Positions 18,690-61,876 of a DNA stretch of 64,000 nucleotides are shown here, one piece after another (within the stretch, counting starts at the first letter, position 1; each line of letters begins with the position of its first letter). Below the pieces are notes generated by a model. It saw only the letters and a list, made by a program, of their open reading frames with translations. It made no database searches and had not been told where the DNA came from. A program made the translations under genes and the position numbers. The DNA comes from Hormiphora californensis. Taxonomy: Eukaryota; Animalia; Ctenophora. The DNA lies in the NCBI GenBank assembly GCA_020137815.1, contig CM035358.1, positions 186,001 through 250,000 of the forward strand. The letters run 5' to 3'.

Positions 18690-18767
<78 letters not shown>

Positions 18768-19540: not shown

Positions 19541-19542
19541 TA

Positions 19543-20605: not shown

Positions 20606-20683
20606 TATCGTCATATCTATTTTCACATAGAGCTACAATGCTACATGCTCATTTTACATTTTAACACGTTTCTTCTTTATTAG

Positions 20684-20872
20684 TATCAGAGTGTCTCAGC
20701 GGTGACTTTCCAAAGTCAAACAGAGGAACGTATCTTCCTAATCAACTTAGTTATACAACAAATGACACTGTAACTATAACCTGCAATTACGCTGCAAAAG
20801 ACAGTGCTGATGAAGTTACATCAACGTGCAATTCCGACGGAACTTGGCACCCCGCTCTCCCTGAGTGTGTAG
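20684..20872 (+). CDS. Crumbs-like gene exon: Sushi/CCP domain 1
   Basis: SECLSGDFP...YTTNDTVTITCN...STCNSDGTWHPALPECV, flanked by ag and gtaag. Confidence 0.8.
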
Positions 20873-26800: not shown

Positions 26801-27364
26801 TTATTTCAGGAAAGATAATACGGGACGGTTTCGACGTTTAACGTCATCATCAGCTCAAATTAATTTGTTTAAAGTAGTGTTGAAAAAATTGAAAGTTTCA
26901 AACTTTTTAACACTACTTTAAACAAATTAATTTGAGCTGATGATGACGTTAAACGTCGAAACCGTCCCGTATTATCTTTCCTGAAATAAATCTCCGAGTC
27001 GTCTACAGTCCTAGATAAACACTATTTCAATGTACCAGAACTATGCGACTCAAAAACAGCCGATTGGTCAATTTATTGATTCAGTTAAAGAATATTTAGT
27101 AATTTATCTCTTCTTCCAGTTTGTAAGGTAAATGATGACTGCACAGAAGGGACGTGTGATAAAGGCAATGTATGTGTATGTAATGAAGGTTATTATCTAA
27201 ACAATGACAATGCAACATTATGTGAAACGGTGTCGTGCAAGCTAAAAGTTGACCACGCTGTCTTGGATCCTGATAAAACCAGCTACACTGGCAACGAAAC
27301 GGTTACCGTGACGTGTGCTGATAACTATCTTCTGAAAGATAGAAATTCGGGTATATAAACACAC

Positions 27365-30400: not shown

Positions 30401-33400
30401 TTAGGCAAAGTCTCAGCACCAGCAAAAAATCCTTCTGGTAGTTTTGTTGCCAAAAGGTGTGCTATAGCTCCGGAATCACCAGGATTCAGGAACCTTGAAT
30501 GAGGGTAAAGAATAGTCCAACCCATGATTTTTCATGAGCTAATCTTCCAAACTTATTTCTGAGTAAAGCCCAACGCTTGTAAAGATCCAAAATGAACACC
30601 CTGTATAACCAAAATGAACAATACCATGTTGTGTTATAACTATGAACATGTGTTTAGACGAAACCAGCTTTACTGTGACATGTCAAGGAGATACTGGAGT
30701 ATGGGACCCAACGGAATCGACTTGTGTCCGTAAGTTATAATAGCAAGTTTATAGGGATCCCTAAAAAAGTTCAGTATTTACACAGCGTTTACACCAGAGC
30801 GCTGTGATTGGCTGAAATTTCTGACGATGGAAAATTTAAGCCAATCACAGTGCAGATTTCAAAATTTTTCTTCCCACGCTACCGTGGGAAAAACTGAAAT
30901 GGCTTAACTGGTGTAAACGCTGTGTAAATACTGAACTTTTTTAGGGATCCCTATTGAAATGAACTTTTTTTGGTGGTACAGTTCCAATTTACGGGCTCCC
31001 GATTTACCGGAACCCCGATTTACTGTACACACTTATTCCCCCCACCCCCAGAAATGGCCGTGCAACCTTTACTATAGGGTATTTTGTCGGTCGATTAGAT
31101 ACCCTAGTAAAGGTTGCACGGCCATTTCTTGTGAAAATTGGCGCATTCTCAACAATATGGGCCCATTTTCACTGAAAAACAACTACTTAGTCAGGACCAC
31201 TATTGGTGTGCGGTCGTGCCCACGGAAGGAGTGCGTGAATCATCTTGAAACCGTTTTTAAGTTAACTAATGCATATCCAAAAGTGTCTGTAGCTACCGCG
31301 CGGCCCAAAAAAAACTAAGGGTACGTTGGCCTTCTTTTCTCCCAGAAGTTTAATTTCGATCACTCTGATATTTTGTCACAATATTTGTATGGTTACTCAT
31401 TCGAGGAATCCGGAGTTTCAAAACATAAAAGTGTGAAGTTCATGAATGAACCCATTTTCTCGTTTTTCGGGTTTTTCCAAGTTTTCTCATGGTTAAATTC
31501 GATTTTATTCTTAAAAATAGCAACCATGCATTAGAGTAAACAATAATAAATGGCAATCCGAGTTTTTATTAAAAATGAATCAAGTTTAGTTGGTGAAATA
31601 AATGATTAAAAAACGGTCATTTTTACCAAACATCGATTTTAACCCGTTTTGACAAGAAATTGGTAAATTCAGGCGCTAAAAATTCGTACGGCCATTAACA
31701 CTTGATCGATATTGATGTTAGCTAGAATTTCGGCTCTCTATCTAAAAATTCATTTTTACGACTGGAATGAATCATAAATGAACTTGAAAACAAAAAAGGT
31801 ATTCCAAACCGGAATTTCACAGTCGCCTTTGGGTAACGATTTCCTTTCAAACGCGACTAATTTTAGGTCAATTGGACCACCACAAGAGACACAGTGGCCA
31901 CTTTTCCGACACTAGGTCTGGCCAAGTGACCCCTATTGGACCGCTAGCGTCATTACTAAGTGCCAATAAGCAGTTGTAACGGTCGCGTATCACGTATCAC
32001 ATCTGCTAATTAGGACGGTATACCGATACAGCGTCCGTTAGAATGTAAGTTCTCTTGCTAACACGTCACAATTTGATGGGGATCACATGACCCAACCTAG
32101 GCTAGTAAACTGGTCACTGTGATTCTTGTGGTGATCCAATTAAGCTCAAACTGGTCGCGTTCGAAAGAAAATCGATAGCCAAACAAATTTGTAAAACTTT
32201 TGTACCAAAATATGGTCCCGTTTTGGCGTTCATTAAATGTTCATTCGGGCGAAAAAAATGAATTTTCATCCAGAGGGCTGAAACTCCGGATTCCTCGAAT
32301 GAGTAACCATACAAATATTGTGACAAAATATCAGAGTGATTGAAATTAAATTTCTAGTAGAAAAGAAGGCCAACGTACCCTTAGTTTTTTTGGGCCGCGC
32401 GGTATTTGGGTGATGTTGTGACAGGGTCGTGGACTCTAACGGACTCCAGGTCTAAAAATGACAGACTCTAAGTCTAACGGACTCGAGGTCTAAAAAAGGC
32501 GGACTCTAAAACATTTTTTAGACTTAGCAAAAATTTTTAGACATAGAGTGTGTTAGACTTGGTAGACTTAGAGTCCCCCAAGCTCAGACGTTAAACAAAG
32601 AGTCCCCAGACTCTAGGTCTAAAACCTAATCACCAGCTTATCCCAACCCTAAACCTGTTACTGTGAGAATGGGGAGAGAGAATTTTAACAGCGCTGGTGT
32701 GTCTGGCTACAAAATCAAAATTTTCATTTTGATTTTGGCGTAGGTGTGTGCTGACCCAAATCATATCATCACTAACAATATGATATCATCACTAAGAATA
32801 TTTGTTAGTAGATTCACTAGTATGTTATAATTGTAAGTGACGTCAATAACAACACTACAACGAGTACTATACATGGAGGTGTTGGAAGAGTTTGTAAGAA
32901 CACAAAATTCAGTCAAGCAACTTCTGTGAACATCCTACATACTACTTTCTCAAAAAATCAGACCTTTTGCCGAGTTTTTTATTGTGTGGATCCTAATAAC
33001 TCAAGGCGGAATTTTCGTACCTACCCGAATTAGCTCAATGATCTGACTAAACATTGTAGGAAGGAGCTGTTGAATCACCATGAAAAGCTCCATGAACTCT
33101 CTGAAGAAGGACGTGCTTTATCATTATATATTGAAAATGAACTGATAGTGTAACTTTGATTATTATTTGGTAACATGAAATTCCCCCTCTGCGCTAGCTC
33201 ACGGAGGGGTAATAATATCGCTCTTACATCCGGGAAAAAATTCCTGTGTCCAAACTACAAAACAGAAAGTTCTAATTTTTTGAACGTACCGATGAAATTG
33301 TCTGAGCTACCATTACATACCAGAATTTTTCGATATTTTGGCCATTAACACTGTTTTTGTTTTGCTGGAATTTGGCTACAAAAAGCTTCAGGAATGTGCA

Positions 33401-36400
33401 AAATGCCATTCCAAATGTATTAGAGGTGGATTCATTCATAACTAAGCTATAGTCTAGTCAGAATAAATTCCACAAGATTGGAATTTCATGACCATATATG
33501 GAGGTATCTTGTAATCTTGTAATCTTGTAATGTTCTTCGTACAGATGCTGTACCGGTGTCAGTTCCTCACAGAGCCTCCCCCTCCCTGGATACAAGAAGT
33601 ATCCAGTCCAGAATTGAATTGTTATTTTGTCTGGTATATCCAGGTACCGGGGGTCGGTCCGGCATCCTCCTGTCAGGCCAATGCTCTGACAGGCATCCTC
33701 TTCAACCATTCTCCAAGAAGTACTTTGAACACAGTGAGGCTTTTAGCTGTGTTCACTTCACTTGGAAGGGTGTTCCATAGTCGGGTCGCTCTAGAAGCGA
33801 AAGAGTTGTGGAATTTCGTGGCCACCGACGATTGTGTGGTAGTGGGGCATGTTGGCACCTCCGCTCGTAGTCCGAGACGATCATTTTGGTAAAAGCGGAT
33901 ACCGATGTTGTTTGGCGCTTCACCGTTGGCCATTTTCCAGACCATGATGATGGAGTAACGTTCTCGTCTTCGTTGAAGTGAAAGGATCCCAAGTTTCTTC
34001 AGGCGATCCCAATAGTTTAATTCGCACATGCCCTGGATTCTCTTTGTAAATTTTCTCTGGACTGTCTCAACTTGCTGGATATCAGAGATTTTGGGCGAGT
34101 CCCAAAGTGGGCAGCAGTATTCAAGCTTACTGCGTACAAGGCTCTTATAGAGGATTAGCATTGTTCTCCTCGCTCTGGTTTTAAAGGAGCGTAGAACCCA
34201 CGCACTTATGTATGTAAGTGATACACCTTTGTTGTTAAACATGTGGTGGAATCGCTACCGGTCGCTACTTTCTGTAGAATGCAGGTCCTAGTTACTATAC
34301 AAACTATGTAGTACCATACATTTTAGATAGGTTTTAGACAAGTTTTCATGAGAAGGTCCTGTAAATTTTCATTTTTAGGTAGGCGGTATTGTAACCCCTA
34401 TATGCAATAATAGGGGTGACAAACGTTCATAATATAATACATACATGTAACTTCTAGTGGAAGTTTGTTGATATTTTTGAATGAATTCAGTCCTCTTAGT
34501 TACCACTTCAGTTGCCATGGCAACCGTGTTATTGACGTTGAAAGTGGCTTCGCCCGTATGGGTTATAAAAAGTCAAGAGGTGACAGCTTTCACTTCGTTG
34601 CCTGCCGCGGAGTGATTATAAGCCATAAGGAGATCGGTTAGAGTCTCGCGGCATATTCCGAACCATGTAGTCAGACATTGAAAATAGGGTAAACCGGGGC
34701 AGAATGGTTAACTTTTTACTTAATCGGTTCTCACCCCCGTTTAAAAAAATATAAGATGAAAAAAATTATATAGGATTAAAGTTCATTATTTAATCGTTCA
34801 AATAAGATAAATTTCGACTCTCGGGACCATTATTTACTTAATTAAATACCTAGATTAAAAATTTTGGTAGCCAAAATTGGTACCGGGGCAAAATGGTTAA
34901 CTCGCCCGTAGCGCCAAAACTAAGCATTTTAGAGTATATGTTTGTTCATAAGTCATATATATAAACCTGGCCATTCCGGAGCGGATTCTATAAGGAAAAA
35001 TCAATTGGGTCACCAAATTAGCCACAATCAGCATACCCATCTTGGCACACACAAAATACGTCATATTTTACTAATTCGCCATGTATGAGTTATAACTCCA
35101 AAACTAAGCATTTTATACCATATGTTGCTTCATAAGGCCATGTTTATATATGACTTATGAAGCAAAATGTGGTCTCAAATGCTTAGTTTTGGAGTTATGG
35201 GCGAATTAGTGAAATATGACGTCTAGACGCGTCTTTTGTGTGTGCCAAGATGGGTATGCTGATTGTGGCTAATTTGTATATGACTTATGCTCTAAAATGC
35301 TTAGTTTTGGCGCTACGGGCGAGTTAACCATTTTGCTCCGGTACCAATTTTGCCTACCAAAATTTTTAAATTAGGAATTTAATTAAGTAAATAATGGTCC
35401 CGAGAGTTGAAATGTATCTTATTTGAACGATAAAATAATGAACTTTAATCCTATATAATCCTATATTTTTTAAACGGGGGTGAGAACCGATTAAGTAAAA
35501 AGTTAACCATTTTGCCCCGGTTTACCCTAAGTTTAAACTGGTTTTCAATCTCTGACTACATGGTTCGGAATATGTACAACAAAATTATAATATGTATTAA
35601 TGTGAGAAATATTGCCGAATTTAAGTTTTAATTTTTCCCAATGTTTCAGCGTGTAATATAAATGATGACTGTACAAACGGGACTTGTACCGGGAACATAT
35701 GTGATTGCGTTGAAGAAAACTATGTTTTGGTGAGTAGTTTAAGTTCATACAATTCAGTTCAAATAAATCAATGGAAACTTCCACATCAGTCAAAGTTGGG
35801 AACTTTATGTATTTCACTGCGTCGTGTGTCGTCACGGGTGGTTCAATTTTGATCCGCAGAAAGTGACTCTCTGTAGAAACAGCAGTTTGGGTACCTACTT
35901 TTAGTCTCTTTTATGTGCCAACCTGATGTTTATGGCGGTCAGATTCAGCATACAATCTCTGCCCCAACTCAGCCTGACTCAGCTCACCTTTTAGAATCAA
36001 TCTGAGTATTTTTTATCAGAATCCGGACAATCCACAATTGTGTGAAAAGGTTACATGTACCGGCTTTGAATGTAACAATGGGAAGTGTTTTGTTCGAGGA
36101 GGAAAACAGGAGTGTGAATGTACAGACGGGTTCACGGGGGACCGTTGTGACCAATATGCAAAGTAAGTATCTTTGTTTACAGTTTTGTAAGACGGAGGAT
36201 TGTCCTGAATAGTACCACAACTATATTCAGTCTATCTATATTCACAACTATATTCAGTCTACCACTTTATCCAACAGTGATATAATCTTCCAGGAATTTG
36301 TGTGCCACCAACAATGATCAGTGCTTGTACGGATCTATATGCAATCAGATATCTGCTACTGATTATTCTTGTGACTGTTCATCTGTTCAACAGTACAACG

Positions 36401-39400
36401 CTACAGGCAAAAATTGTCAATACCCGCTGCAATTTCAAATATTTCTGAATGCAACTGAAAAGTAAGGAGTAATCAATGCGCTGGCAAAGGCAACTATAAT
36501 AGTGGTCGTTTTTATTCCTCCCCTCATGCAATATACTGTTTGGTAGATTGAGCCCTCTTCTAACTGGTTCAGTTGAGAAAAGCAGCTCGGTCGATTCCTG
36601 GTATTAATGATATTTATTGTCAGGTGTGTTGCTATTAAAGACATTAATACACAAAAAGTATCCGTCGAGTACGCCACTATTGCAAGTCCTCAAAGAATGA
36701 TGATCATGTCGGCATTGGTAGGTTTTATCTAATGTGATAATTTCATTCATGACAGCTCCCTGCCTGGGAGAGGTTAACCCGATCTGATCTAAATTCTTCC
36801 ACAGTTGACAGATGTTGAGGCATTAGACTACGTGGTGGCAGTCCTGCAGACTAGCGACAACTCACTCTCTGTCCAGTTTACTCCCCAGAATGACATCTCA
36901 ACAAACCCTCAAACATTTGTGTACCATGTGAAGGTCATTGACCTGACTAAATTATACAACACTCTGGAATTACGTTTGAACAAGACTTACTCTAGCTCCG
37001 ATGGAAACACGGTTGAGTTAGTATTGGATGATGAAACTATATGGACTGATTCAACAGGGTCAGGGCCGGCATCAAAACGATTCAATTCAATATCCGCTTT
37101 CCAAGTTGGAGGGAGTTCAAACTGCATTGGAAAGTTTGGTGGTTTAGCGGAGGACTTCTACGGTGCTTTTAAAGGCGTTTTTTATGGAGAAGATAGGGCA
37201 ACAATAGAACAAATCATAAAATCAGGTGTGTACACTGTTAGGAGAATTACAGTCGAACCCCAATTTACCGGGCCCCGTTTTATCGGAACCCCGATTTACC
37301 GGGAGTATTAAAGTGAGAGTGGACCGGATCAGAATTGGACAAGTTTGTTGTAGAATGTAGGTAGTAGAGATTAGCTTTCTGAGCATTTTGCGTTTTTGCC
37401 GCTCAAAATCGACCCACCCATCACTGAGATATTTTTTTTTATGTTGGAAGAATTCCTGCTGGATCAATATTTATCAAACAGGATAGAAACAATCCTTGTG
37501 TTTTACTAACACATTCTTTAAATTTTTAATATGCTGGCTTCCATTGCCCTGCTTCTATGCATGGACATGTCAACCTCACTGCTTATATTCAGAATGTGTT
37601 AGTAAAACACCACGATTGTTTCTACCCTGTTTTATACATACTAATTAAGGGTACACCTGGCGTTTTTCATCATCGAGTGCCCAACCAAATGACTTCACCA
37701 GGGTTTAGGCCATACAAAATGGACCTCAAATATGCAATTTTAGCCCTAAAGTCGAGTTCATATTTTTGCTACAGCCTATTTTCAAATCGGCGTTTTTTCA
37801 ATTTTTGTTGAAATTTTTAACCTCAGGACCACTTTTTTTGAGATAGAAACATTAAATTCTTGGAATTTGAAGAGAATATGAAGGTAAATAAGCCCAAAGA
37901 AGGATTTTTGAAATGGAGCTTATTTCTGGCCATGAGAACGGTTTACTTTTTTGCGTCTTTGACACGCTGGCTGAGAATGTTCCCATGCTTCATTAGAGAT
38001 GAAAATCTGGAAATAGTTGCCCAAAACGATTATCTATGTGGCCCAAAAATTTTGGAACTTTCCCGCCAAAGATGTGGTGTACAGGGCTTGTTTTGTGAAA
38101 CCCGTCTTTTTGAAAAAGAGGGAAATTCCCTGTATCTCAAAAACGGATGATCGTAGAGACCTGGGACTAAGCTTAATCGATTCAGAAGGTCCGATTTTGG
38201 GGGGGTCTTCTGAGAGACATTTTGCTCCTACTCCAACCGTTTTTGCTGTAATTGCAAAAAACCAATTCTATGAAAAGGGGGAACAACTCTATTCCAGCAG
38301 CCCGCTTCGGGCTGATTTCCCCCTTACTTGCTGATACCTTTTTCGCAATTACAGCAAAAACGGTTGGAGTAGGAGTAAAATGTCTCTCAGAAGACCCCCC
38401 CAAAATCGGACCTTCTGAATCGATTAAGCTTGGTCCCAGGTCTCTACGATCATCCGTTTTTGAGATACAGGGAATTTCCCTCTTTTTCAAAAAGACGGGT
38501 TTCACAAAACAAGCCCTGTACACCACATCTTTGGCGGGAAAGTTCCAAAATTTTTGGGCCACATAGATAATCGTTTTGGGCAACTATTTCCAGATTTTCA
38601 TTTCTAATGAAGCATGGGAACATTCTCAGCCAGCGTGTCAAAGACGCAAAAAAGTAAACCGTTCTCATGGCCAGAAATAAGCTCCATTTCAAAAATCCTT
38701 CTTTGGGCTTATTTACCTTCATATTCTCTTCAAATTCCAAGAATTTAATGTTTCTATCTCAAAAAAAGTGGTCCTGAGGTTAAAAATTTCAACAAAAATT
38801 GAAAAAACGCCGATTTGAAAATAGGCTGTAGCAAAAATATGAACTCGACTTTAGGGCTAAAATTGCATATTTGAGGTCCATTTTGTATGGCCTAAACCCT
38901 GGTGAAGTCATTTGGTTGGGCACTCGATGATGAAAAACGCCAGGTGTACCCTTAAACAGGAGTTCTCCCAACATAACAAAAATATCTCAGTGATGGGTGG
39001 GTCGATTTTGAGCGGCAAAAACGCAAAATGCTCAGAAAGCTAATCTCTACTACCTAGAACAAACTTGTCCAATTCTTATTCGGCCCACTCTCACTTTAAC
39101 TTCCCTGATAGAGGAAATTAACTTTATTTGACCCCGATATACCGGGCACCCCGATTTACCGGGCAAAACCATTCCCCGAGTATCCCGGAAAATCGGGCTC
39201 CTAATGTAACTAGTTCACTGGATCATAAGCTACGTGATACTTTCATGTTCACAGTTTTTAGACAAGAATAGTCAAAATCCTACAGAGTATTTAGCTCCTA
39301 GAAGAATTTTCTAAATCAATAAAGCTAAACTGAATTGATACAGCACCTAACTCCGATCATTTGAGCTGTGTTTTCAGGAATAACGAAGACGACACCGTTG

Positions 39401-42400
39401 TCTTGTTCTACAGTGATCTGTGAAAATAATGAAGGTTGTACGATGGATGCAATCGAACGACCTATCTGTAAATGTAAAGGTAGGTCGAGTAGACTAGAAC
39501 AAAAAACAAAGAAACATTGTTTGGAACCCCCGTGGCCTTGTGTAGATCCTTGACGCTGAGGGTAATTCTTGTGTGATGAAGGTGTAAAAAACTGAGGGGA
39601 CACTTTTCTTAATTATATCACGCTGCCTCCATACATGCATGCTCCCGCATACGCAGATTTAAAATTTTACCGTGTAAGTGGTTGCGCGTAGCGGGAGTGA
39701 TATTTGTACTACTCTACCTATCTTTCTCTTTCTCTGTCTCTCTCTATCTCTCATCTGCCTAACTTAGGCCCCTACCAATAATTTATTTTAGATGGTTACG
39801 ACGGTCCTGGCTGTTCAATGATTCAACAAATGTCTTTCAACGGCTACAGTAGCCTTTACGAGTTGGATTTGGAACCTCACACCTCTCTCGGGAATGATAA
39901 TCTTATCAGTGAAATGATCATTGCCTTTGGTAAGTTTCAAAATAAGGGTATCTGTTATCACATTTCTGTTCAATGGGGCCATTGGAAAGAGTGTTGAACA
40001 CTGAAAATCATTCCAAATCCGGTGGTCATATTAACTAGACAAGCAGTTGCGAAATTAACTGAAGCTCCTAAATCTTTTGTTTCAGATGTCCACATTGACA
40101 CTACGGAGAAAGAAAGTGGTCCTATCTTAAAAGTGACGAGCACATCTGATTGCGATTTCTCCCTTAAAAGTAACTAATTATTATTGATTATTAAAGTTAA
40201 ACATGAGTCAACTCCCTTTCTCCCCTGAGGAGTTTGTACATTTTTATTACCGTCCTCAGACTCAGAGAGCGAGAGAGAGAGAGCGGGAGAGAGAGAAAGA
40301 GCGAGAGTCTGCTACTTGGTAACTCATAGTAAGAGGGCGTAGCCGGAGTTCTATAAGTTACGATGTGACACAACAGGCATGACATGCCACGTCGCCACGA
40401 AAAAAGCGTAAAGAAGTGAGAAGAATTCCTTTTGCTGAACCCCCCCCCCCCCCCACCGATTGGTATGTCCGTGTTTCTCCGCCCTGTGGTCGTGTCTGCA
40501 GACCTCTTGTTGCTGCTGTTAGTATAAAAGGTAGCTGACTCCAAATGGCTACCGAATGACTCTACCTTGCACCTCCCCTGGTGAAATACCATCTTATTGT
40601 CAACTACCCAAGATTGTAGACTGTGAGCTGTCCACTGTGAGCTGCAGGTCTAAATGTTGCTGCAGGCAGGCGACCTTACTCCAAACTTTCAGTGAGAGAT
40701 AGATATACATTTACCGGATTTATCTGGATCTCATCACAGAGAGACTAGATATAGAATATAGAGGGACAGATAGGAAGAGAGAGGGGGATATTTCTTTAAA
40801 TTGCCTGTGTGTTGCATGCCTCAAGTGTATATTCACAATCACCTGAGATCATTAGATGAACTCTATAGCACCGCTGGAAACACGCCTTACACACGCCCTT
40901 ACACTTACAGCCACTTAATCTCCCAATGGTAATCTAATACTGTTTCAGCGAGAAAAGATGGCAATCAGCAGGTGTTCTTCTTTGCTGACGATCCAAATAG
41001 CACTACAGTTGACTCCAAAATAACTCTGGTGTTTAATGGAAAAACGGTTAAATTTGGACAACTACAGTCAAAAAGTTGTGTTTATGAGACAACGTTACCA
41101 CCGCTTAAGGTTAGAATTATGACTTGGGAGTTGTGGATTAGCTAGGCCAGGTCTAACGTCCAATGCTTCCTTGGTCGATCCTCGATCTAATTAAGGCATA
41201 GGGAGCTATGCTCGCGGAAAATTTGTAGTGAGGGCTGTTAAATTAAGATATAGGTAGTCTGTAGTCTGACTCGACTCCCGTTCACTCCTAAATCCCGACA
41301 TTTGCTTTCAAAATATTTCCTAATTAATCAGGTAACGTTTGGAGGTGAATCAGATAATGACACAGCGCCTAGCAACTTCCATGGCTGCTTGGATAACTTC
41401 AAGTTTACCGTTGGTGGGATAACTAGTGGGAGCATCCTGAGAAATACAAAGAGTGTAAAGAGTGTAAAGGTGGATGAGTGTGTGACTGATTACGTGCCAC
41501 CCAACCCATGCACACCCAGTTCTTGCAATAAGCAAAAGTGTGAACCTAATCCATTCGATTACACAGGTAACTTCGCGGGCACCTTTATGTTGCACTTGGA
41601 TAAAATTCATTTTCCGCAATCCGTATGTGCAGTGTCATATTAATGACAACATTGTGAAGCCGGGACTTGTTACCCAAAAGCTTATAAATAAGCAATAAAT
41701 AGTGTTACACGCTGATGAATGGTATCAGCTATGTATAATACCTCCCCACGATATTTTTCAGTTTTATGTTCCTGTACGGCACCAATGGAGGGTGATGCAC
41801 AGTGTGCTCGGAAAAAATACTGTGAGCTTGATCTAGCGGAGGGAGGATGCCAAGATGCGTCTACTAAAAAGTGCTATGAAATTATGGAAAATAACCTTGA
41901 TAGCTGCAAAGATATTTCCGGGTTGCAGCCTGATACCTGTGCAGAGATACTGAAAAAGCCTGTCTGGTATTACTATTGTGATTGTAAAGAGGGATACACA
42001 GGAGATCAGTGCACTACAAAAGAAGAACGTAAGAATTATTAGGGTGATTCATAATGATTTTCGCTAGGTACTTCTGGATCGCTAGTGATGATAGAGACCA
42101 AAAATTTCTACAGGATCTTTTAGTTTGGACTATTTGTTAACCCTAAGACCATGTTTAAAGTTTTCAATGACAAAATTTTACCGGTGACGGACTATTTATG
42201 AAGTTCAGTTTTGTTCCGGTCTCACAACCCAAATTTCAGTCCTTGGTTTTAACCCTGTAGAGGCCGTAAATTGATTCCAATGGATCCAGGACTTTTTATA
42301 GGGGAAGAAAGACATCTTTTTGGGACATTTGTGTAAAAATTAAATCTAAATCCAATTTTCACGTTTTATTTTGTGGGCTATTTTTAGAAATTGGTCAAAA

Positions 42401-43427
42401 ACCCATTTTTTCACTTTAAAAGGCTGTCACCACGGACCTGGTTGGTCTTTTGCCAAGATTGAAAGCTCAAATTGTAAATTAAGCTTAGCTCTACATGATC
42501 CTAAAGTTATTTGGCGGTTTTGGATGTCTTAGAAGGCCTAAAATTGAAGTTCAAAAATGTTGCCCGAAAACAGGTGATTTGAAATCACATTTTTTGCCAC
42601 TTTTTGGGCGATTTTTAGCACCCTACTCCAATCCAGCAACTTTTTCGGCTCAAAATGGGTTGTTTCCGATGACAACTGATAGAATGGACTACCTTATGTG
42701 TGAAAACGGCTAATTCTCAAAAAATTTACTTGCATTTTGACCATATTTTGATACGGGAGACGGCATAGTGGCCAACCACTAGAAAACGGGCTATAGCCTT
42801 TGGAAGAAAAATAGACTGGTCCCTAAAAATGGTGTCGTGAGATCAAAATTTCGTGCTGAACAAGTTCCTGTAAAAAATTTAGGGCTCGGATGAACGAAAC
42901 CCCGAAAAAATAGCTAGCGAAAATCATTATGAATCACTCTAGTAATTCCAAATTTACAGATTGTAGAACTGAAACTGTTATCTACTCCGCTAGCAAACTT
43001 TAAACATCATGGAACGAATTTTGAGCAATTCAGTCTTACTGAACTAGATATCCCCAGATGGAAAATTAACATATTTATATTGCAGCTGTTATAAATGAGA
43101 AAAGTGATCAAACTACGATAATAGTTGTGGTTGTTATTGTCGCGATTGTTTTAATACTCGTCGTTATTGTCCTGCTGGTGCGAAGAAGAAAGGAGCAAGG
43201 CTCTTCTGGAGGTAAAGTTGCCCACTATGTTCATTCATTTGATTAATCTGGGCTCGACCATGTACATGTAACAGTAAAGTTTTTTAAATTTTTCAGATAC
43301 GTATAGTCCACGGGCAATCGAGAAAGAAATTGAGTTGAGTCCTCCTTCAGCTAAAACAGATGACGTCCTTAACATTTATGATGACCCGGAGATAATACGA
43401 AATCCCAATGTGGAAAGGTTAATCTAG
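20684..43427 (+). CDS. CRB: Crumbs-like type I membrane protein (Sushi-EGF-Sushi-EGFx3-LamG-EGF-LamG-EGFx2-TM-Crumbs tail), 5' end not found
   Basis: GT-AG, phase-compatible exons: 20684-20872, 27120-27350, 30658-30729, 35650-35729, 36020-36162, 36294-36461, 36624-36717, 36805-37225, 39378-39479, 39792-39929, 40086-40169, 40949-41109, 41332-41566, 41762-42028, 43086-43211, 43297-43427. They give about 880 codons with no internal stop, ending DTYSPRAIE...NVERLI-stop. Confidence 0.88.
21169..22496 (-). mobile_element. Merlin/IS1595-family DNA transposon, internally deleted
   Basis: GG...CC termini, long TIRs with a (gaggacacatt)n minisatellite, 8-bp TSD GATTTTTT (21161-21168, 22497-22504). The empty site is visible in the host-MITE paralog at 30152-30323. 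Confidence 0.9.
21974..22324 (-). pseudogene. Merlin (ISXO2-like) DDE transposase, C-terminal fragment
   Basis: ILPGTIIITDGWAAY..L...GYTHFTVNHSTNFV...TGAHTNAIEGLW. Confidence 0.9.
22980..23434 (+). mobile_element. 5'-truncated LINE (C-terminal CCHC zinc knuckle, 3' hairpin, (GAA)n tail)
   Basis: CAACGMEDETIKHVLTECPAL; hairpin ctggctagtgc-ttc-gcactagccag; TSD GAATCCGCTAAT at 22968-22979 and 23435-23446. Confidence 0.85.
23962..26700. mobile_element. Composite TIR element with about 196-bp tandem repeats (24147-24730) and nested inverted pairs
   Basis: gttgacaagatacctaaaact...tcgtattttttcgatttatcatt is mirrored at 26637-26690; inner inverted arms at about 24885-25070 and 26238-26440. Boundaries are approximate. 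Confidence 0.65.
25709..25787. mobile_element. 79-bp micro-transposon with an 8-bp TSD
   Basis: AGTAAGGC-CTGTCAGAGCATTGGCCTGAC...GTCAGAGCATTGGCCTGACAG-AGTAAGGC. Confidence 0.8.
26758..27086. mobile_element. Penelope-like inverted pLTR remnant with a hammerhead-ribozyme core
   Basis: Inverted arms at about 26761-26890 and 26900-27029; CTGATGA-t-GACGT-taa-ACGTC-GAAAC-c-GTC at 26937-26966; 12-bp TSD AAAGAATATTTA (26746-26757, 27087-27098). Confidence 0.75.
27359..27454. repeat. (ACACAT)n microsatellite
   Basis: Direct reading. Confidence 0.95.
27710..28975 (-). mobile_element. 5'-truncated CR1-group LINE (RT C-terminal half, ORF 27863-28885)
   Basis: [49 protein letters not shown]; (TTA)n tail at about 27710-27730. 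Confidence 0.92.
29871..30603. mobile_element. Mariner-like MITE (CAGGGTG ends, TA TSD) with a nested cagtcggacccc MITE (30152-30323)
   Basis: cagggtgttcattttggatctt / aagatccaaaatgaacaccctg. Confidence 0.85.
30754..30951. mobile_element. TA-flanked MITE
   Basis: gggatccctaaaaaagttcagtatttacacagcgtttacaccag and its reverse complement. Confidence 0.85.
31296..32402. mobile_element. TA-flanked TIR element
   Basis: TIR of more than 100 bp: ccgcgcggcccaaaaaaaactaagggtacgttggcc... mirrored at 32285-32402. Confidence 0.85.
33507..34205 (-). mobile_element. 5'-truncated CR1-group LINE 3' end
   Basis: LYKSLVRSKLEYCCPLW...SLQRRRERY...RLWNTLP; (TTACAAGA)n tail. Confidence 0.9.
33670..33692. mobile_element. 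23-bp solo form of the micro-transposon, 8-bp TSD
   Basis: GCATCCTC-CTGTCAGGCCAATGCTCTGACAG-GCATCCTC. Removing it restores the CR1 C-terminal KRMPDRPPVPGY. Confidence 0.8.
34687..35527. mobile_element. gggtaaaccggggc-family foldback MITE
   Basis: Long inverted arms, TA-flanked. Confidence 0.85.
36805..37225 (+). CDS. Crumbs-like gene exon: Laminin-G-like domain 1
   Basis: Beta-rich sequence ending FQVGG...FYGAFKGVF; acag acceptor and g/gtgtgt donor. Confidence 0.75.
37250..39206. mobile_element. Triple-nested MITE stack in a Crumbs-like intron
   Basis: TA-cagtcgaacccc MITE (37250-39206) contains a TTAA-AGTGAGAG element (37312-39095), which contains a TTAA-GGGTACAC foldback (37649-38951). 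Confidence 0.88.
41332..41566 (+). CDS. Crumbs-like gene exon: end of LamG 2 and start of EGF
   Basis: VTFGG...NFHGCLDNFKF...NPCTPSSCNKQKC. Confidence 0.85.
42042..42939. mobile_element. TA-flanked TIR element filling a Crumbs-like intron
   Basis: gggtgattcataatgattttcgctag / ctagcgaaaatcattatgaatcactc. Confidence 0.8.
43086..43211 (+). CDS. Crumbs-like gene exon: transmembrane helix
   Basis: IIVVVVIVAIVLILVVIVLLV followed by the stop-transfer RRRK. Confidence 0.9.
43297..43427 (+). CDS. CRB: Crumbs-like gene last exon: FERM-binding motif and ERLI PDZ-binding motif
   Basis: DTYSPRAIEKEIELSPPSAKTDDVLNIYDDPEIIRNPNVERLI-stop. Confidence 0.9.
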
Positions 43428-45864
43428 CTGGATCTCTATTAGGATGTACAATGCTCAACTAATCATTGCTGGACAATCAGAAACTAATCTTTACAGGGAT
43501 CAATTGAGCGATTTTATTTTGATTCGCATGACAGAAGTATATAGTAGCATGATTTTTAAGTTTGTTTGATTTTTCTAATTTCACCTTTTTTACAACTTAT
43601 AATATAGATATTGCGCTGGTAAGCGCCTGCATCTAGGTACTTGGCATGGTACCAGTCTCGCTGCCATTGCCAAAAAAGCAACAAAAAGAATGATATAACA
43701 TATCACTTATAGGGCTAGGATTTTGGGATTCTTAGTTCGATTTTTTTCCGGCGTGGTCAGCACTCCAATTTTTCGATTGTTCGAGTTTTCAATAAGTGAA
43801 GGATGAGATTAGCAGGAAAATTCATGTGGTAGTTCGGTGTGCATGAAGGGTACCACCCAACTAAAAGTTACTATGCACTGACGTGACGTTACGCGATTTA
43901 TACCACGCTCGAATTACTATTTCAAATCCGAGATTTCTAAACCCTGTATGATCTTTTTAGCACACGTGTGTGCTCATGACCTGTATGTGCTCATGTATGT
44001 GCTCATGAGGCATATTTCATCGAACCTTAGGGTTAAGGGAAACTCTAACTGAATGGCATCCCATTAATGGGATCCCATCAACAGTAAAACTATAATGGAC
44101 CACAGTTATGGTTCTTTCTCTGTATTCTCTCTGTAGGCAGTACATTGGGCATTCCCGGGCGCGGGCACGAACACAGAAAGAATAGTCTGTACAGAGAAAG
44201 AACCATCACTGTGGTCCATTATCAGTTAAAGTTTTACTGTTGATGGGAGTGCCATTCAGTTAGAGTTTCCCCTTAGGATTAGGCTTAGGGGTAGATTTAG
44301 GGCCGGGTTCCGGTTCCAGTTAGGGTACGAATCCAACCACTAGGCCTAGGGGTTAACCTCGACCAATTATAATATGTCTAGGGATTAATCCTTAACCCTC
44401 ACCCTATAACTTAAGGTTAGTATTGGGATGGGGGTTAGGGTTTGGCTCCATTGCAACCTATTCTCGCTCCGCGAAGAATAGGCTCCCGCTCTGTCATGGA
44501 CAGCAAGAACTCACGTGTGCGCGATGTAAAGCACGTTTGTCAGCAAATCATGTGCGACAGACTGTTTTGGGAGACCTTTTTTAGCTGACCTAGCACTACT
44601 CAAACGTCAATTACCGCCTCATTTCGCATCGTGATGAATCGGCGGGTTTTTTCCCATGCTCACAAGGCCATGACGATTCACCCAGTACCCGCAGATTGTC
44701 CCAGGACCGAGTAAGAGCTTGCAGAATTGCTCATGTTTAGCGTCAATTTTGACCCACTATTCCTTTAATGCTGATACTTGCGGGTATTTTCCGTAAAACT
44801 AGAGACAATTATCTGTCAGGAGCAACAAACGAGATGCAAATCGGTTCAGTAGTTCCTTGCAGCCAGGTCTTTGAAAAAGTTTGCTCTAAAATCAATAACA
44901 GAGCGGAGGCCTGTATGTGAGATTCGCTGGCACTCCTTCAAATGTCAGCAATATGATCCTCTCTGAAATATAAAATTTGGGATAGAAATTATCCTTGTGT
45001 TTTAGGAGATTGTATAATCTTTGTGCGTGATAGCTTAAAAAGTGCTAACAACCCAATCAAATTACGTGTGGAGGCGCCGCGTGGGTACATATATATAGGT
45101 ACCATCGCGGGACAAAAGTACCCGTACTTTTTGTGAGTTGCTCTGTAGTTTCTGTTTGGCCGATTTTATTTTTCCAAAAATTGCCAGTTATAGTTAGGTT
45201 TTTTTCAAGAAATTCATTATCTTATTGATTAAATTGTCAAATTTATCACACTGGGGCAAATTTTTTTCACCTCTCTGGGGCAAAGTGGGACACCCTGGAG
45301 CTTTGGAAGAACTCGACATTATTCTTCTAGCCTCTTTTAGCTCGAAAAAGGATAGCACATAGTATGAGAGTTCAGGGCGTTTATAAAGTTTATAAAATGT
45401 TTTAAAATGTCTGGGTTGTCGTTTGTTTTCGGTGTATCTGCTATACAATTAACATTTACCAAAGTTTCTTTGATAATGAAATTTTACATTTTAGAAAGTT
45501 TATATCTTCCATGAAGAATAATGTGCTGATTTTTACCATTTTTTTACAAGTTGAGCTATGTATGATAATATTATTGATTCATCTATTAATCCTGAAGGCT
45601 ATGCTGAGTTTATCATTGAAAATAATATATAAATTATACTGTGTGATTTTAAATGACTGAGACTGGTGTATCGCAAACTGGGTGAATACTTCGACTTCAA
45701 ATTTTGGGACACGATGTAGCAATTTTCTCCTAGTGTTACTTACTCAACAAAGTTTTACAGCAAATTTCAATGTTCCAGAATGAATCTATTGCCACAAATC
45801 CTTCTCCAACTTTACACGGTCATATCTCTGGAGTCTAAATTAGACTCTACACGGTGTCCCTTAA

Positions 45865-46490
45865 GGACGTTCAACCTCGACCGAGCTCCCGAGCAAAACG
45901 AACGGTTGTGTGACCTAAAGGGGACCTCTGGGAACTACGCAGGGCCGTGGGGGAAAGATATAAAGGTATCTAAAGGAGAAAATCGCATTTAGGGCAAAAA
46001 AGCGCAAATAAAACCCAAAAACGCCATTTTAACAATGTTGCCGTGGATTTAGAGTTCCAATTCCAGCGGCAATCGATTCGGCGTTTTAAAAAAAACCCTG
46101 GGCCGGGGTGACTTGATTTTGGTCGAAAAAAGTAGATTGGAAAATTTGGAATATAGAATTTGGTCATTTTTCTCACACTACATTCCAAATTTTCCAATCC
46201 ATTTTTTCGACCAAAATCAAGTCACCCTAGGGTTTTTTGACACGCCGAATCGATTGCCGCTGGAATTGGAACTCTAAATCCACGGCAACATAGTTAAAAT
46301 TTGTATTTTTCAGCAGCACAAGTTAAAATGGCGTTTTTTGGGTTTATTTGCGTTTTTTTGCCCTAATGCAATTTTCTCCTTTGGATACCTTTATATCTTT
46401 TCCCCCACGGTCCTGCGTAGTTCCCAGAGGTCCCCTTTAGGTCACACAACCGTTCGTTTTGCTCGGGAGCTCGGTCGAGGTAGAACGTCC
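45865..46490. mobile_element. Foldback MITE
   Basis: ggacgttcaacctcgaccgagctcccgagcaaaacg mirrored at 46455-46490; arms of about 300 bp. Confidence 0.85.
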
Positions 46491-46524
46491 GTGTCTAATG
46501 AGATAGATACATAGTTCAGATTTT

Positions 46525-47251
<727 letters not shown>

Positions 47252-48255
47252 CAAGAATTATTGCATTATGTATTCATAATGCGGTGTTTCCCTGCCAAAT
47301 GGATTTAAAATTGATGACTAAGCTTCAAAACTGGATTTCCTGATGAATTTTGTGCTCAGAGAGCATTTTTTGGCTGATGCGATGTTAGTTACTAAGGTAG
47401 CTAGGTAAGTTGCTATGGTAACCAAAGGCAGTTGCTATGGTAACCAAGTCTGTTGCTTAGGAGACCCCAGTTGGTTACCAAGTGCTTCAACTTTAATCGC
47501 ATCTTAACTCGAGTCACTAGTGTGAAAGTAGTTTCATGCTTGAAAGACGTTCTATCACTTCATAGCATGGCTGTAGGGCGAACAAAGTGATTTCAGGTGA
47601 TAGTGGGAAGTGCTATCAGCGAGTAATTGTGCGCCACAATGTGTGTTAATCATTTCCTTTGTTGAATCAACGAAGCGTGAGATGAAATTTTTATGAAGGA
47701 GCAGCCTTGTTGTTAGGCGTTGTCCGTGACGGACGGACACTTTTAGTTAACTACACAATCTGCTGATTTCTAAACCCCGAATGATCTTTTTAGCACGTGC
47801 GTGCTAAAAAGATCATCCAGGGTGATTGCCTTCGGCAATCACCCGGGCAGGGAAAAAATCTGAATTCTTTTTCTCATTATACACTAGAGATATAGCCTTG
47901 TAAAGTTGGTAAGCGGTAAAGGTTGACCCGTTTCCTGAGAATTTTAAACGGTTTTGGCCATAGTATTCACACAATTTGCGATATACCAGTCTCAGTCATG
48001 TAAAATCACATAGCAATACAAAAATATAATTCATTTTCAATTCATTTTGCTGTTGCTAATCCAACCAATTGTTTGTTTTGATTGTATATTCTTCTGTTAC
48101 CATGTAGTAGCAGCAGAAGTTGATATGAAGTTGATCGTTGGATCCACATTATATAAACCCTAAATCTGAGTCTAGGCAATATGTAATGTGAGGTGGAACG
48201 TGTCAGTGACAATGTTACACTAAAGTTATAATTTGTTTTAATCAATATCGTTTCC

Positions 48256-48444
48256 AACAACAGCATTTCGATGAACGATCGTGAAGTAAGAAATTCACCA
48301 TCTCCTTCTCCACCTCCTTTTCCTGAAAGTGATGCCGGCGTTGCAGTAGATTCATCTATTGCTTTAGATATAATGGATGCCCCGACCAAAGATGGAGGCT
48401 CTGTCTACTGTGAAAACCACCCTGAAGATGACACGGACATTTAA
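48256..48444 (+). CDS. Possible terminal exon or short ORF (acidic, Pro/Ser-rich), gene unknown
   Basis: Non-repetitive open frame NNSISMNDREVRNSPSPSPPPFPESD...CENHPEDDTDI-stop; no upstream exons found. Confidence 0.25.
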   Translation, partial: NNSISMNDREVRNSPSPSPPPFPESDAGVAVDSSIALDIMDAPTKDGGSVYCENHPEDDTDI

Positions 48445-52768: not shown

Positions 52769-52929
52769 ACAACAAAAAATATGTCCGAAAAGGTTAGAAA
52801 GCGCTGCTTTATCCCGCGCTGCTATCGGGGGCCAGCAACGTTTGCCAACGAAAAGGTGGAGGATTAGCCATTAGGGTTTTTTTAGGATTGGGTGGACCAA
52901 GTATTTTACGAACAAATCGCTGCTACGAA

Positions 52930-55900
52930 ACCACAGTGTGCACTCGAGAACGTTTGAGTGCACAGAAGCATTTGTAAAGGGAAGTGTAGGTCTCCGTTTT
53001 TCAGTGATTTACCGCACTGGAAATGAACATGCACAGTTTTTAGCTGAATTCAGTGCCTACCTATCGTCATTTATCTCGAAAGGAGGTGTACCGATCCTTC
53101 TGGGTGACTTCAATGTTAGATTTCAGGACGAAACTGATAGTTTTACAATACGTTTCAAGGAACTAATTGACTCGGAAGGTTGGATACAAAACGTGGTAGG
53201 CCGAACTCACTCGAGAGGTGGAACTCTGGATTTGGTGCTAACTAGGGAAGGAGAGGATATCGGTTTAAGTGATGTTGACGTTTACCGGTCTCCGGTACTG
53301 CCCGATCATTCTCTTGTGAGCTTCTTTTTAGACGTTTCCGGTATAAGTACGACCTCAGAATACAAGATAGTTACGAGTCGGATGATGAAGGACTTCGATA
53401 TAGAGGATCTCAGGATGGACATACTCGACTCGGATCTTTGTGGAGAACTACCGGATGAGTTAGATGGCTGTGTGAGTCTCTACAACTCTGTAACACGATC
53501 TTTATTGGACAAGAGAGCACCCTATGTTACCAAGAAAGTGAAAACGAGAAATGTCCAGTGGTATAATCAAAACTTTGAGAAATGTCAAATGGCGAAGAGG
53601 TTACGAAGAGGGAAAGAGAGAAAATACAGGGGTAAGCTGAGAAAATCTACAAATCCGTTGGAATTACTTGAACTTTTCCAGGAGTCCAAAGCCCAGGAGA
53701 AAGAGACGGAGAGGGTGATAAAGGGTGTAAGGGAAGGCTTTTTTACTGTAAAGCTGGAAGCACAACGACACGATCCTCGTGGAACGTGGCAGACTGCAAA
53801 TACTCTGTTGGGCAGGGGGAAGCCAGTGGTTGTACCTGGCAACATCGAGCATACTGACCTTGCTGAGGCATTTATGAACGCTTTTAAAGGAAAAGTTGAA
53901 AAGATCTACCAGGCCATGGAGAAAGAGCGACAGGAGAATATGCCCCCTTCACAGGAAACCAATACTCAACAGAAAACAGCACCTACTTTCAAGTTTACGA
54001 ACGTTTCTGATGAGACACTTCGTTCAACTCTACTGGATATGGGAACAAAGCATTGTGAATTAGATCCTCTTCCTACTTCATATGTGCATAATCTCTTCGC
54101 TGAACTTCTACCCATCCTGTCCAAGATTGTCAACACTAGCCTGTCTACAGGGGTTTTTCCGTCCGAGTTAAAGACTGCTTTAATTCGCCCCCTCATCAAA
54201 AAAGCTGACTTAGATCCAGATGACCTCGGCAATTATAGGCCAGTCAGCAACCTACCGTTTCTTGGAAAACTGATCGAGAAGTGTGCTGCTGATCAGTTTG
54301 TCAGACACCTGGAGGAACATGCGTTGCTGCCCAAAAATCAATCAGCCTACCGATCCAATAAAAGCTGTGAGACGGCAACTCTTCGAATTCTGGACGACCT
54401 GCTGATGTTAACTGACTCTAAATCAAAGGTTGCCCTTTTACTCTTAGATATGAGTGCAGCGTTTGACACTGTGAATCACTCAGTCTTGCTTCGACGTCTT
54501 CAGAAGTTGTTTGGAGTTAAGGGTACGTCCCTGGCATGGTTCGAAAGCTACCTCTCGGGGAGAAGTGCATCAGTTTCGGTTGGAGACGTTAAATCAGCTC
54601 TTACGGCCATTGGTATTGGGGTTCCACAGGGATCTATTTTGGGTCCCATACTCTTCATATGTTACACAGCTGAACTGGAACTAATCGCCCTAAAGCATGG
54701 TGTGCACATACACTTCTATGCAGACGACACTCAGATCTATGCTGCTTTCTCCTCAGAGAATTATGCGGACACAGAACTGAGACTGCAGAATTGTACAGCT
54801 GATATACGGTCCTGGCTAACATCTAGCTTCCTACGCCTCAACCCATCGAAGACTGAAATTCTGATTCTATCACCTAGGGATAATGATATTCAGAACTCCT
54901 TTCAGCTGTCAACGGATTGTGATCCTTTGCCCGTCGCTTTATCTGTGAGGAACCTGGGGGTATATTTTGACTCAAACCTAAGTTTTGATGAACATGTAAC
55001 TAGAGTTGTAAAAGCATGCAACGCTACGCTAGTAAACCTCTGGCGGATAGGCGGCAAACTATCAAAAAGACTCAGGACGACCCTCGTATCAAGCCTAGTG
55101 CATTCTAAGCTAGACTACTGCAATTCTCTTCTGGTAGGCATCACCAAGAAGAACCTCGACAGAATGCAGAAAGTTCAAAATGCAGCAGCGAGATTTGTGT
55201 ATGGTCAGAAGAAATGGAGAGGTACTACTAACCTAAGGAAAGCATTACACTTTCTTCCAGTTGCTGAGAGGATTGAATTCAAGATCTGTGTACTGGTTTA
55301 CAAATGTGTAAATGGCCTTGCTCCGGGGTATCTATCCGACCGAATTGAGAAGAGAAGGAGAAAGTCCATGAGCCTCAGGAAAGATGATGACCACCTTCTT
55401 TTGGAGACACCGAGGACAAAATACAAACTCAGCGAAAAGGCGTTCAGTATCTGTGGCCCTCGATTTTGGAATCAACTGCCAAGAGGACTAAGATCAACTG
55501 AGTCTTTGGACCGCTTTAAAAGAGACTTGAAAACGCATCTTTTCGGTAGAGTCTTTACTTAGGTTGTGTCGATTTTCCGGAGTTGGGGAGATTGTCGTCT
55601 TCTGTCGGTGGAAGTAGGGTTGGTAGTCTGTAGTTTGAGCGGTGAGGGTTTGGAGCTTTGTTTGGAAGCAGATGTGGAGCTAAGTGGTGGTACATGGAGT
55701 TGTATTGGATTTAGAGTTGAAGTTGTTATGCTTTGTAGTGTTTGAAGTCGAAGTATTAGAGGCCTCTGGAAGGTTTCGGTGAGGGCTCCTTTTGCTGGCG
55801 GATATTTTTTGTGTTTCTGGACTCTGCGAGGTGTTTGGTCGAAGTGTTGGGTCTCGGTAAGGGCTGGGAGTCTGAAGTTTCGAGCAGCGTAACTGTTGCT

Positions 55901-60234: not shown

Positions 60235-60501
60235 AATTGTTTTTCTGTACAAAGTCCAAGTTGGGGTTCCTTTTCGTTGGTCTTGAAAAGCGCTGCTTTA
60301 TCCCTCCTGCGTGTTTGCCAATTGTTGGTCTTTGGATGCCAATGCAGTTTGATTTTTACATGGATCTTAGATTATTTCACCCAAATGCACCTTCTTATAT
60401 CAAACAGCCCTTCATCAGTCTGTATATTGTATCATGTCGTAAAATTGCATAATGATGCTTTAATATAATCTTTTCCACATTTAGAAAAGAGGTAGTCTGT
60501 C

Positions 60502-61876
60502 ATGTCCGAAAGTCGGCAAACCCTTGTGGAAGCTGGAGAAACAGTTAATTATGAGACCTCGCCGGGAGTCGAAGTATTAGGAAGCTTTGATAGCATTGGA
60601 CTTCGACAAGACCTTATGAGAGGTATCTACGCCTACGGATTTGAGAAGCCTAGTGCCATTCAACAACGTGCTATTCGGCCCATGGTTAAGGGGAGAGACG
60701 TGATTGCACAGGCCCAGAGTGGAACTGGGAAAACAGCAACATTCTCCATTTCTGCACTCCAGTCTGTTGATATCCAGTTGCGAGAACCCCAGATCATTGT
60801 TCTTTCTCCTACCCGAGAACTGGCTGTCCAGATTCAGAAAGTTATGCTGGCTCTTGGTGATTACATGAGTGTCCAATGCCATGCGTGCATCGGCGGCACA
60901 AGCATTGGTGAGGACATCCGAAAATTGGATTACGGGCAACATATTGTGAGTGGAACACCTGGTCGAGTTTTTGACATGATCAAACGGAGAAACCTCCGAA
61001 CCCGAAGTGTAAAGATGTTTATCCTTGACGAGGCAGACGAGATGCTTAACAAGGGCTTCAAAGAGCAGATCTACGACGTGTACCGGTACCTACCTCCCAC
61101 CTCGCAGGTATGCCTGGTTTCTGCAACACTCCCACATGACGTACTGGAGCTTACCACCAAATTCATGACAGATCCTGTTAGGGTGCTAGTAAAACGTGAC
61201 GAGTTGACCCTTGATGGAATTAAGCAGTTCTTTGTAGCAGTTGAAAGAGAAGAGTGGAAGTTTGACACACTTTGTGACCTCTATGATACCCTAACCATAA
61301 CACAAGCTGTTATCTTCTGTAATACTAAGAGGAAGGTGGACTGGCTGACTGAGAAGATGAGAGAGAGTAACTTCACTGTGAGCTCAATTCACGGGGATAT
61401 GCCACAGCAAGAGAGAAACGCCATTATGGATGAGTTTAGAGGTGGCAAGAGTCGTGTCCTTATCTGCACTGATGTTTGGGCCCGAGGTATTGATGTTCAG
61501 AACGTCTCTCTCGTAATCAACTATGACCTTCCCCCAAATCGTGAACTGTACATCCACAGGTAAAACAACTGTGTATAATGTTTAAATACATGTAAGAATG
61601 TGTGTCTTTAAACTCCATGTGCATTTGAAACTGCCCACCTGGCTAAATTCAGGTCCCAGTTACTGGGCCCTTATTGTGTTATATCTTACTCGTATTCATT
61701 TCAATCTCCTCACATGTATACCCTCCCTCAGGATCGGTCGATCAGGAAGGTATGGAAGGAAAGGTGTTGCCATTAACTTCGTTAAGAACGACGACGTCCG
61801 TATTCTGCGTGATATCGAGCAGTACTATTCTACACAAATCGATGAGATGCCAATGAATGTTGCAGATTTGATTTAG
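60502..61876 (+). CDS. EIF4A3: Eukaryotic initiation factor 4A-III (exon junction complex DEAD-box helicase), 400 aa
   Basis: Exons 60502-61559 and 61732-61876; [33 protein letters not shown]; eIF4A3-type [20 protein letters not shown] and [11 protein letters not shown]-terminus. Confidence 0.97.

Follow-up and report, generated by a model that had tools for sequence, protein, structure and literature searches.

Comparison with described Crumbs proteins

Described Crumbs proteins (fly Crb, vertebrate CRB1/CRB2, and those of sponges and placozoans) are type I membrane proteins with an ectodomain ending in the order LamG-EGF-LamG-EGF-EGF, followed by the membrane helix. The same order was found for a gene located between positions 20684 and 43427 on the forward strand of a 64,000-nucleotide stretch of contig CM035358.1 (positions 186,001 to 250,000; this whole stretch is hereafter called the window), which comes from a ctenophore. 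Further likenesses to Crumbs are the juxtamembrane GTYSPxxxE motif (with D for G in the window), the Thr preceding its Tyr, and a terminal ERLI, which in this gene is encoded by the genomic read-through of the tail exon, where its codons overlap a conserved splice donor. The gene is probably a divergent Crumbs orthologue, an EGF/LamG membrane gene of ctenophores with two alternative tails. It differs from the described Crumbs proteins in having two N-terminal Sushi domains, only two LamG domains, and a tail of 53-61 residues with an N-[IL]-Y insert, and in that ERLI is absent from all eight spliced records; in addition, ctenophores are reported to conserve Par6 and to lack MPP5 (PALS1) and PATJ (PMC5968619).

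A comparable choice of tails is described for mammalian CRB3, where a single gene with a common FERM motif yields an ERLI form (CRB3A) and a non-ERLI form (CRB3B) via a donor that lies within the tail exon (PMC5380682; PMC4278252), the latter through alternative donor and acceptor sites of exon 4 (PMC5380682); in the window gene the ERLI form is predicted. CRB3 has no ectodomain and CRB3B ends in CLPI, whereas the window gene has a large ectodomain, its donor lies in the Arg codon, and its alternative tail adds approximately 57 residues with an end that is not conserved between species. The two tail switches presumably arose independently. Neurexin-1 alpha (PDB 3qcw) and the ctenophore neurexin share LamG-EGF-LamG modules and a single membrane helix with the window gene but differ from it in domain order and tail, and the named ctenophore neurexins are other proteins (PMC11405698).

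No Crumbs with a conserved tail was reported for Mnemiopsis, Pleurobrachia, and Beroe, yet EGF/laminin membrane proteins were noted (PMC5968619); the preliminary description of this locus, made from the sequence alone, had stated this absence correctly. The absence is repeated in PMC7441587 and PMC9729800, and it serves as an argument against homology of ctenophore epithelia with those of other animals. No publication claiming a ctenophore Crumbs was found, although subscription papers, bioRxiv supplements, or automatic names (e.g., RefSeq, Bolinopsis) could carry the label; the supplements of PMC11184263 and PMC11797021 gave no match for Crumbs terms. A ctenophore Crumbs would challenge the published absence and fill the sole gap among animal phyla.

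Tail exons and a splice donor within the ERLI codons

The 3' part of the gene consists of the following features.

43086..43211, forward strand: exon encoding the membrane helix and a basic stop-transfer stretch (RNA cover from 43150; 98% identical in P0121)
43212..43296, forward strand: GT-AG intron of 85 nucleotides, phase 1 (bridged in X12 and X13)
43297..43417, forward strand: tail exon common to both forms, with the TYSPxxxE FERM-type motif and the N-[IL]-Y-x6-I-x-N-[PV]-N-[AV]-E block
43418..43427, forward strand: donor GTTAAT within the Arg codon (use of the donor seen in RNA); read-through gives R-L-I-stop
43418..48263, forward strand: intron of 4846 nucleotides removed in the long form; it would contain the 3' end of an ERLI mRNA
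48264..48444, forward strand: terminal coding exon of the long form, with a polyproline, acidic tail and no ERLI (loose end of X12; P0121 and P0128 matches)

Contigs from four sequencing runs were aligned to the region 39300-43700: X12 and X13, which are metatranscriptomes of one study and more than 99% alike, X7, which is DNA from a close relative, and X22, which is RNA by guess only. Runs X8-X11 and X14-X21, with small word shares, were excluded. Spliced records were counted over X12, X13, P0121, P0123 (identical to L004), P0124, P0129, L002, and L006 (n = 8); P0125, having neither a membrane helix nor a tail, was excluded from tail counts, and P0131, P0133, and P0134 fall outside the gene family.

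The preliminary description had proposed two short exons, 43086-43211 and 43297-43427, encoding a Crumbs-type tail behind an EGF/LamG ectodomain. Both exons are present with AG/GT ends, and their joining at 43211/43297 translates as described into the helix, a basic stretch, D-T-Y-S-P-R-A-I-E, and ERLI-stop at 43427; within the FERM-type motif Y, P at +2, and E at +6 are kept, with D replacing G, and the type of ectodomain agrees with Pfam, PDB matches, and the gene model. The junction 43211/43297 is bridged by RNA contigs in two of the three RNA-type runs (X12 and X13). The upstream junction, 42028/43086, is crossed by the transcript-derived P0121, and the distant relative described below has an intron at this place, but no RNA contig of the aligned runs bridges it.

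The further proposal that the transcript simply ends in ERLI is contradicted by the spliced records, all eight of which use the donor at 43417/43418 and, where readable, continue into a proline/acid-rich tail. Contigs of both X12 and X13 cease to align at 43417, immediately before the GT of the donor (43418-43419). Eleven loose letters of the X12 contig fit a single window site, 48264, behind an AG acceptor (10/11), whereas the six letters of the X13 contig past 43417 are too few for placing. The end of both contigs and the placement of the loose X12 end together identify R(L-I-stop) as the first 10 bases of the 4846-nucleotide intron. A search with the tail exon returned one protein among six candidates, P0121, which after N-P-N-V-E continues into sequence matching window positions 48264-48444 and has no ERLI end. 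Differently spliced transcripts had been named in advance as grounds for abandoning the proposal, and they were found in every spliced record; still, a second species has kept the ERLI read-through. The donor is atypical in its T at +3 (2 of 16 donors of the gene) and in its lack of the G at +5 that 11 of the 16 possess.

The ERLI-ending model comprises 880 residues and the long form 937. The long-form tail has 110 residues in the window and 124 in the species of L002, and Tyr motifs and proline runs recur in the long tails of P0129/L006, P0123, and P0124; we presume from their general type that they could bind SH3/SH2-type proteins.

Conservation of the ERLI read-through

A degenerate DNA pattern for the tail block, which ended at the AG before the donor and contained no part of L-I-stop, matched seven metagenome contigs. 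Four of them (L001, L003, L005, and L007) are unspliced DNA of one distant species, 94-97% alike among themselves; their protein shares 32% identity with the window model, and each of the four reads E-R-L-I-stop. The remaining three (L002 from the same distant species, L004, and L006) are transcripts, every one of them spliced at the donor. Introns next to the helix and tail exons, three in all, occupy corresponding places in the window and in the distant species. ERLI-stop stands behind the donor in both species with readable DNA, with different codons for Ile and stop, being ATA and TGA in the distant relative and ATC and TAG in the window.

L-I-stop after AG/GT was observed at one of 425 window sites (this one) and, in the relative, five times among 3530 intron positions. 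The chance of its occurrence after AG/GT is 0.0004-0.0014, or 0.057 if the donor hexamer is kept for splicing alone. Similarity among the family tails ends at E/S, i.e., at the donor, and the distant P0123, P0124, and P0129 diverge after N-[AV]-E-S. The distant relative has AATAAA 182 nucleotides past the ERLI stop. The record from X22 tracks the window across the donor as far as the stop (33/36 letters) and then diverges. In total, a C-terminal ERLI was found as genomic read-through in two of two readable species, in none of the eight spliced records, and in this one ambiguous record. A strong pyrimidine tract with AG is located approximately 90 nucleotides past the ERLI stop in the relative (L003:3355-3375, oriented forward), a possible further acceptor that is unused in L002.

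Relationship to Crumbs

The window gene very probably descends from Crumbs, judging from several sequence comparisons each of which is statistically weak. The FERM-binding motif of Crumbs, RxxxGxYxPS, is represented by two of its five residues in the window and P0121 and by three in P0123, P0124, P0129, L002, and L006, with E at +6 in all of them, the window included; sponge Crumbs proteins were accepted with 2-5 of the five residues (PMC5968619). Independently of ERLI, the tails of P0123, P0129, L002, and L006 contain the complete GTYSPxxxE, and that of P0124 contains GEYSP. The family tail aligns with that of the Crumbs-type protein P0132 at both motifs, the P-N-[AV]-E-R-L-I stretch matching the end of P0132, which in turn matches the fly tail. 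When a tail profile of four family members (A3) was compared with 177,635 PDB sequences, the only match at E ≤ 10 was fly Crumbs (4wsi_X), on the GTYSP..E stretch and weak (E 0.4). Single family tails gave no Crumbs match in PDB at E ≤ 10, because an insert of 12-15 residues parts the two motifs.

When P0121 was compared with 1.84 billion representatives by phmmer, 13 matches were obtained, nine of them to family members or fragments and four to outsiders (a diatom EGF protein, P0132, P0133, and, weakly, Fat2). The best two matches outside the family were the unrelated-looking diatom EGF protein (E 4e-5) and the tail-complete P0132 (E 5.7e-5). In the ESM Atlas, the long-form P0123, which has no ERLI, ranked Crumbs clusters first to fifth (0.90), with N-cadherin-like, neurexin, and Caspr clusters at 0.88-0.89; this ranking serves as a lead only. 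Two other searches were negative: a word-based search with the first LamG exon gave none among 615 candidates, and none of 590 pattern matches from a back-translated tail scan of metagenome contigs was confirmed.

The gene is best classed as a variant rather than a textbook Crumbs, since its short-form tail of 53 residues (61 in the species of L002) exceeds the length of less than 40 residues used as a Crumbs criterion. A ctenophore Crumbs would have been missed because the transcripts lack ERLI; with the motifs also split by the insert, the explanation first offered, small exons among miniature inverted-repeat transposable elements (MITEs), is probably secondary.

Two features of the tail deserve separate mention. 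The Thr preceding the motif Tyr (43299-43301) is kept in the window, P0121, P0123, P0129, L002, and L006 and is replaced by Glu in P0124; this Thr is one of two aPKC sites called a cnidarian-bilaterian innovation (PMC5968619). The insert N-[IL]-Y-x3-[DE]-[VI]-I (43371-43417) between the two Crumbs motifs is kept in all six family tails and is possibly a phosphotyrosine docking site.

Alternative explanations

A number of observations speak against a Crumbs orthologue with two expressed tails, and they are considered here together with the alternatives. According to the first alternative, the gene is a Crumbs descendant in which, early in ctenophores, the Arg codon turned into a constitutive donor and the PDZ motif gave way to a new last exon, in parallel to the loss of PALS1 and PATJ; ERLI-stop would then never be made and would survive through its overlap with the donor. 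Such a relic agrees with the use of the donor in eight of eight spliced records, with the reported absence of PALS1 and PATJ (PMC5968619), and with the polyadenylation signals of the window, where positions 43428-44100 contain only AATATA at 43601 and AGTAAA at 44083 and no canonical AATAAA. None of the eight spliced records combines removal of the upstream intron with an ERLI end. In a control intron, 6 of 8 bases at +3..+10 agree between both species, compared with 5 of 8 at this donor, so that the likeness of donor-side bases can be explained without any coding role. Allele variation does not drop past the stop relative to the other bins of introns (0 variable of 98 columns in the first bin, and also 0 in three inner-intron bins). 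The read-through was seen in two species only, of which the second appears to be a ctenophore by orthology and shared introns, and the X22 record is 113 nucleotides long, begins within the tail exon, and may be DNA. Conversely, constraint on the donor spans at most R-L and two letters of the Ile codon, whereas the third letter and the stop are kept in both species through different codons, for which the value of 0.057 given the hexamer applies; the AATAAA of the distant relative and the X22 record, which reaches the stop before diverging, also argue against a relic. We regard this explanation as unlikely and, from the sequence comparisons above, consider it probable that an expressed ERLI form exists, which would be minor or stage-specific.

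The second alternative, which appears improbable, denies descent from Crumbs and assumes a ctenophore-specific Sushi/EGF/LamG adhesion protein that gained the FERM-type motif and the ERLI read-through independently. Short motifs can converge, and the window tail keeps only two of the five FERM-motif residues and exceeds the Crumbs length; two Sushi domains and only two LamG domains are untypical of Crumbs, and the ectodomain has no strong named match. The Atlas margins are 0.01-0.02, the shared features number 153-161, below the 170 usual for genuine family members, and no score reaches 0.9 when the ectodomain is used by itself (0.86-0.88). No named Mnemiopsis, Bolinopsis, or Beroe protein occurs among the 13 phmmer matches. 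However, the tail has the two Crumbs motifs in the expected order, each at its proper end, with the terminal stretch matching that of P0132; fly Crumbs is the sole PDB match of the tail profile, and Crumbs clusters also lead the Atlas list when the ectodomain is the only query (4 of the top 6 rows).

An origin from neurexins, Caspr, or cadherins, families that share LamG-EGF-LamG and in some cases a juxtamembrane FERM motif, is very improbable: neurexin-1 alpha is the best PDB match of the ectodomain both by profile (E 3e-10) and by fold, and Fat2 is a weak phmmer match, but the neurexin match may win by default, as no Crumbs ectodomain appeared in any PDB match list, even with P0132 as the query, the separate ctenophore neurexin gene starts with LamG and differs in its tail, with the family motifs that were searched absent from the ctenophore neurexin files of PMC11405698, and full-length P0123 begins with Sushi/EGF, its signal peptide directly preceding Sushi, and contains no cadherin repeats of the classical cadherin/Fat type. 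A cadherin reading of the tail, prompted by a resemblance to the p120 site, was abandoned for the same lack of repeats in P0123. The AlphaFold model of P0123 (5-row alignment, mean pLDDT, i.e., predicted local distance difference test, of 40) is usable for the LamG fold only.

Predicted roles of the two tails

In the favored reading of a divergent Crumbs orthologue, the outcome depends on one donor. Its use, which is observed, retains the FERM-type motif and adds the long proline/acid-rich tail with no ERLI. Skipping of the donor, together with an RNA end within the intron, would yield a protein ending in ERLI that could bind a PDZ domain. An ERLI mRNA that ends in the last intron would have no downstream junction, which is relevant to the rules of mRNA decay. 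Via a FERM protein, as suggested by the motif, either form would link the membrane to the actin cortex, and splicing would toggle the PDZ link alone, as in mammalian CRB3A/CRB3B. Par6 is the most likely PDZ partner of the predicted ERLI form, since it is kept in ctenophores and binds ERLI in other animals, and PALS1 and PATJ are reported absent.

Since a single donor would decide whether the PDZ motif is made, isoform ratios could be compared with the known timing of Par6 polarity: Par6 of Mnemiopsis is apical at first and no longer polarised after about nine hours (PMC7441587). A bolder and rather doubtful version holds that ctenophores never lost Crumbs and possess a splice switch within ERLI, with embryos using the ERLI form to hold apical Par6 without PALS1/PATJ and later stages using the long tail. 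Such a switch would account for the loss of Par6 polarity in Mnemiopsis, and Crumbs-Par6 would be the ancestral animal module, with PALS1/PATJ either a later addition or lost in ctenophores. The presence of Crumbs in ctenophores would date the gene to the last common animal ancestor, whether sponges or ctenophores branched first. The preliminary description extended this date to Crumbs signalling; it can hold at most for the gene and not for the complex, given the reported absence of PALS1 and PATJ (PMC5968619).

Gene model and ectodomain

The window gene model includes 16 exons from 20684 to 43427, every one bounded by AG/GT and all in a single open frame, and the order of the encoded domains is Sushi, EGF, Sushi, three EGF, LamG, EGF, LamG, two EGF, helix, and tail. 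Sushi domains were assigned by Pfam, EGF modules were counted from cysteine spacing, and LamG domains were assigned by relatives and PDB matches. The single-pass EGF and laminin-G ectodomain characteristic of Crumbs is thus present, with two Sushi domains in addition. Exons upstream of 39300 lie outside the RNA-aligned region and are based on frame, Pfam, and relatives. The ectodomain is encoded by the following features.

20684..20872, forward strand: first exon found, Sushi domain (Pfam Sushi E 1.7e-5; P0123 match; open in the model)
27120..27350, forward strand: exon with an EGF-like module and the start of the second Sushi domain (Pfam, P0123 match, model)
30658..30729, forward strand: exon with the putative end of the second Sushi domain (phase and Cys/Trp pattern)
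35650-35729, 36020-36162, 36294-36461, forward strand: three exons with three EGF-like modules (Pfam, P0123 match, model)
36624-36717, 36805-37225, forward strand: two exons with the putative first LamG-like domain (position relative to P0123/P0125)
39378-39479, 39792-39929, 40086-40169, 40949-41109, 41332-41566, forward strand: five exons with EGF, second LamG-like domain, and EGF (tblastn with P0121)
41762..42028, forward strand: exon with the end of an EGF module and the last EGF-like module, into which a Cys loop is inserted (RNA cover 41895-42027)

The model is 30% identical to full-length P0123 across 920 columns. P0123 has a signal peptide; no signal-peptide exon was identified in 12000-20680 of the window. 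The first LamG-like domain (36624..37225) has no Pfam match by itself, and among the relatives Pfam matches to Laminin_G_2 and EGF were obtained, Laminin_G_2 being found in P0124 and P0125. Junction 40169/40949 is bridged by RNA, and junction 41109/41332 is implied by a loose contig end.

P0125 is a family member of 631 residues that contains the LamG-EGF region, has no membrane helix, and ends in W/E-rich repeats; it may be a paralogue that is secreted, a further splice form, or an assembly error. Two introns of the gene contain repeats, namely a 925-nucleotide element (42038-42964) in the intron ahead of the helix exon, absent from the close relative X7, and a palindromic MITE-like element of approximately 1.4 kb at 37600-39000.

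Source organism and neighboring features

The organism was placed by a single marker gene, eIF4A3, as follows.

60496..61876, forward strand: eIF4A3 gene, the marker used to place the organism

Among the best 120 of 4295 matches, the window eIF4A3 is 91% identical to those of Bolinopsis microptera and Mnemiopsis leidyi, and its identity to those of other named animals is at most 85%. In a tree of 31 rows picked from the same 120 matches, the window joins the clade of Bolinopsis and Mnemiopsis with support of 100/100, in agreement with the ctenophore source suspected earlier, and is placed outside the lobate subgroup formed by these two genera.

A two-exon small Tim gene (Tim9/10-type by Pfam) is located at 62067-62523, downstream of eIF4A3. 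Reverse-transcriptase-like frames of long interspersed nuclear elements were recognized by eye at 27863-28987 and 33673-34254 (both reverse strand) and at 52875-55562 (forward strand; 895 residues, open). At 2832-4470 there are several intronless open reading frames of 126-211 residues, one of them cysteine-protease-like by eye, which may represent a Polinton- or virus-like insert.

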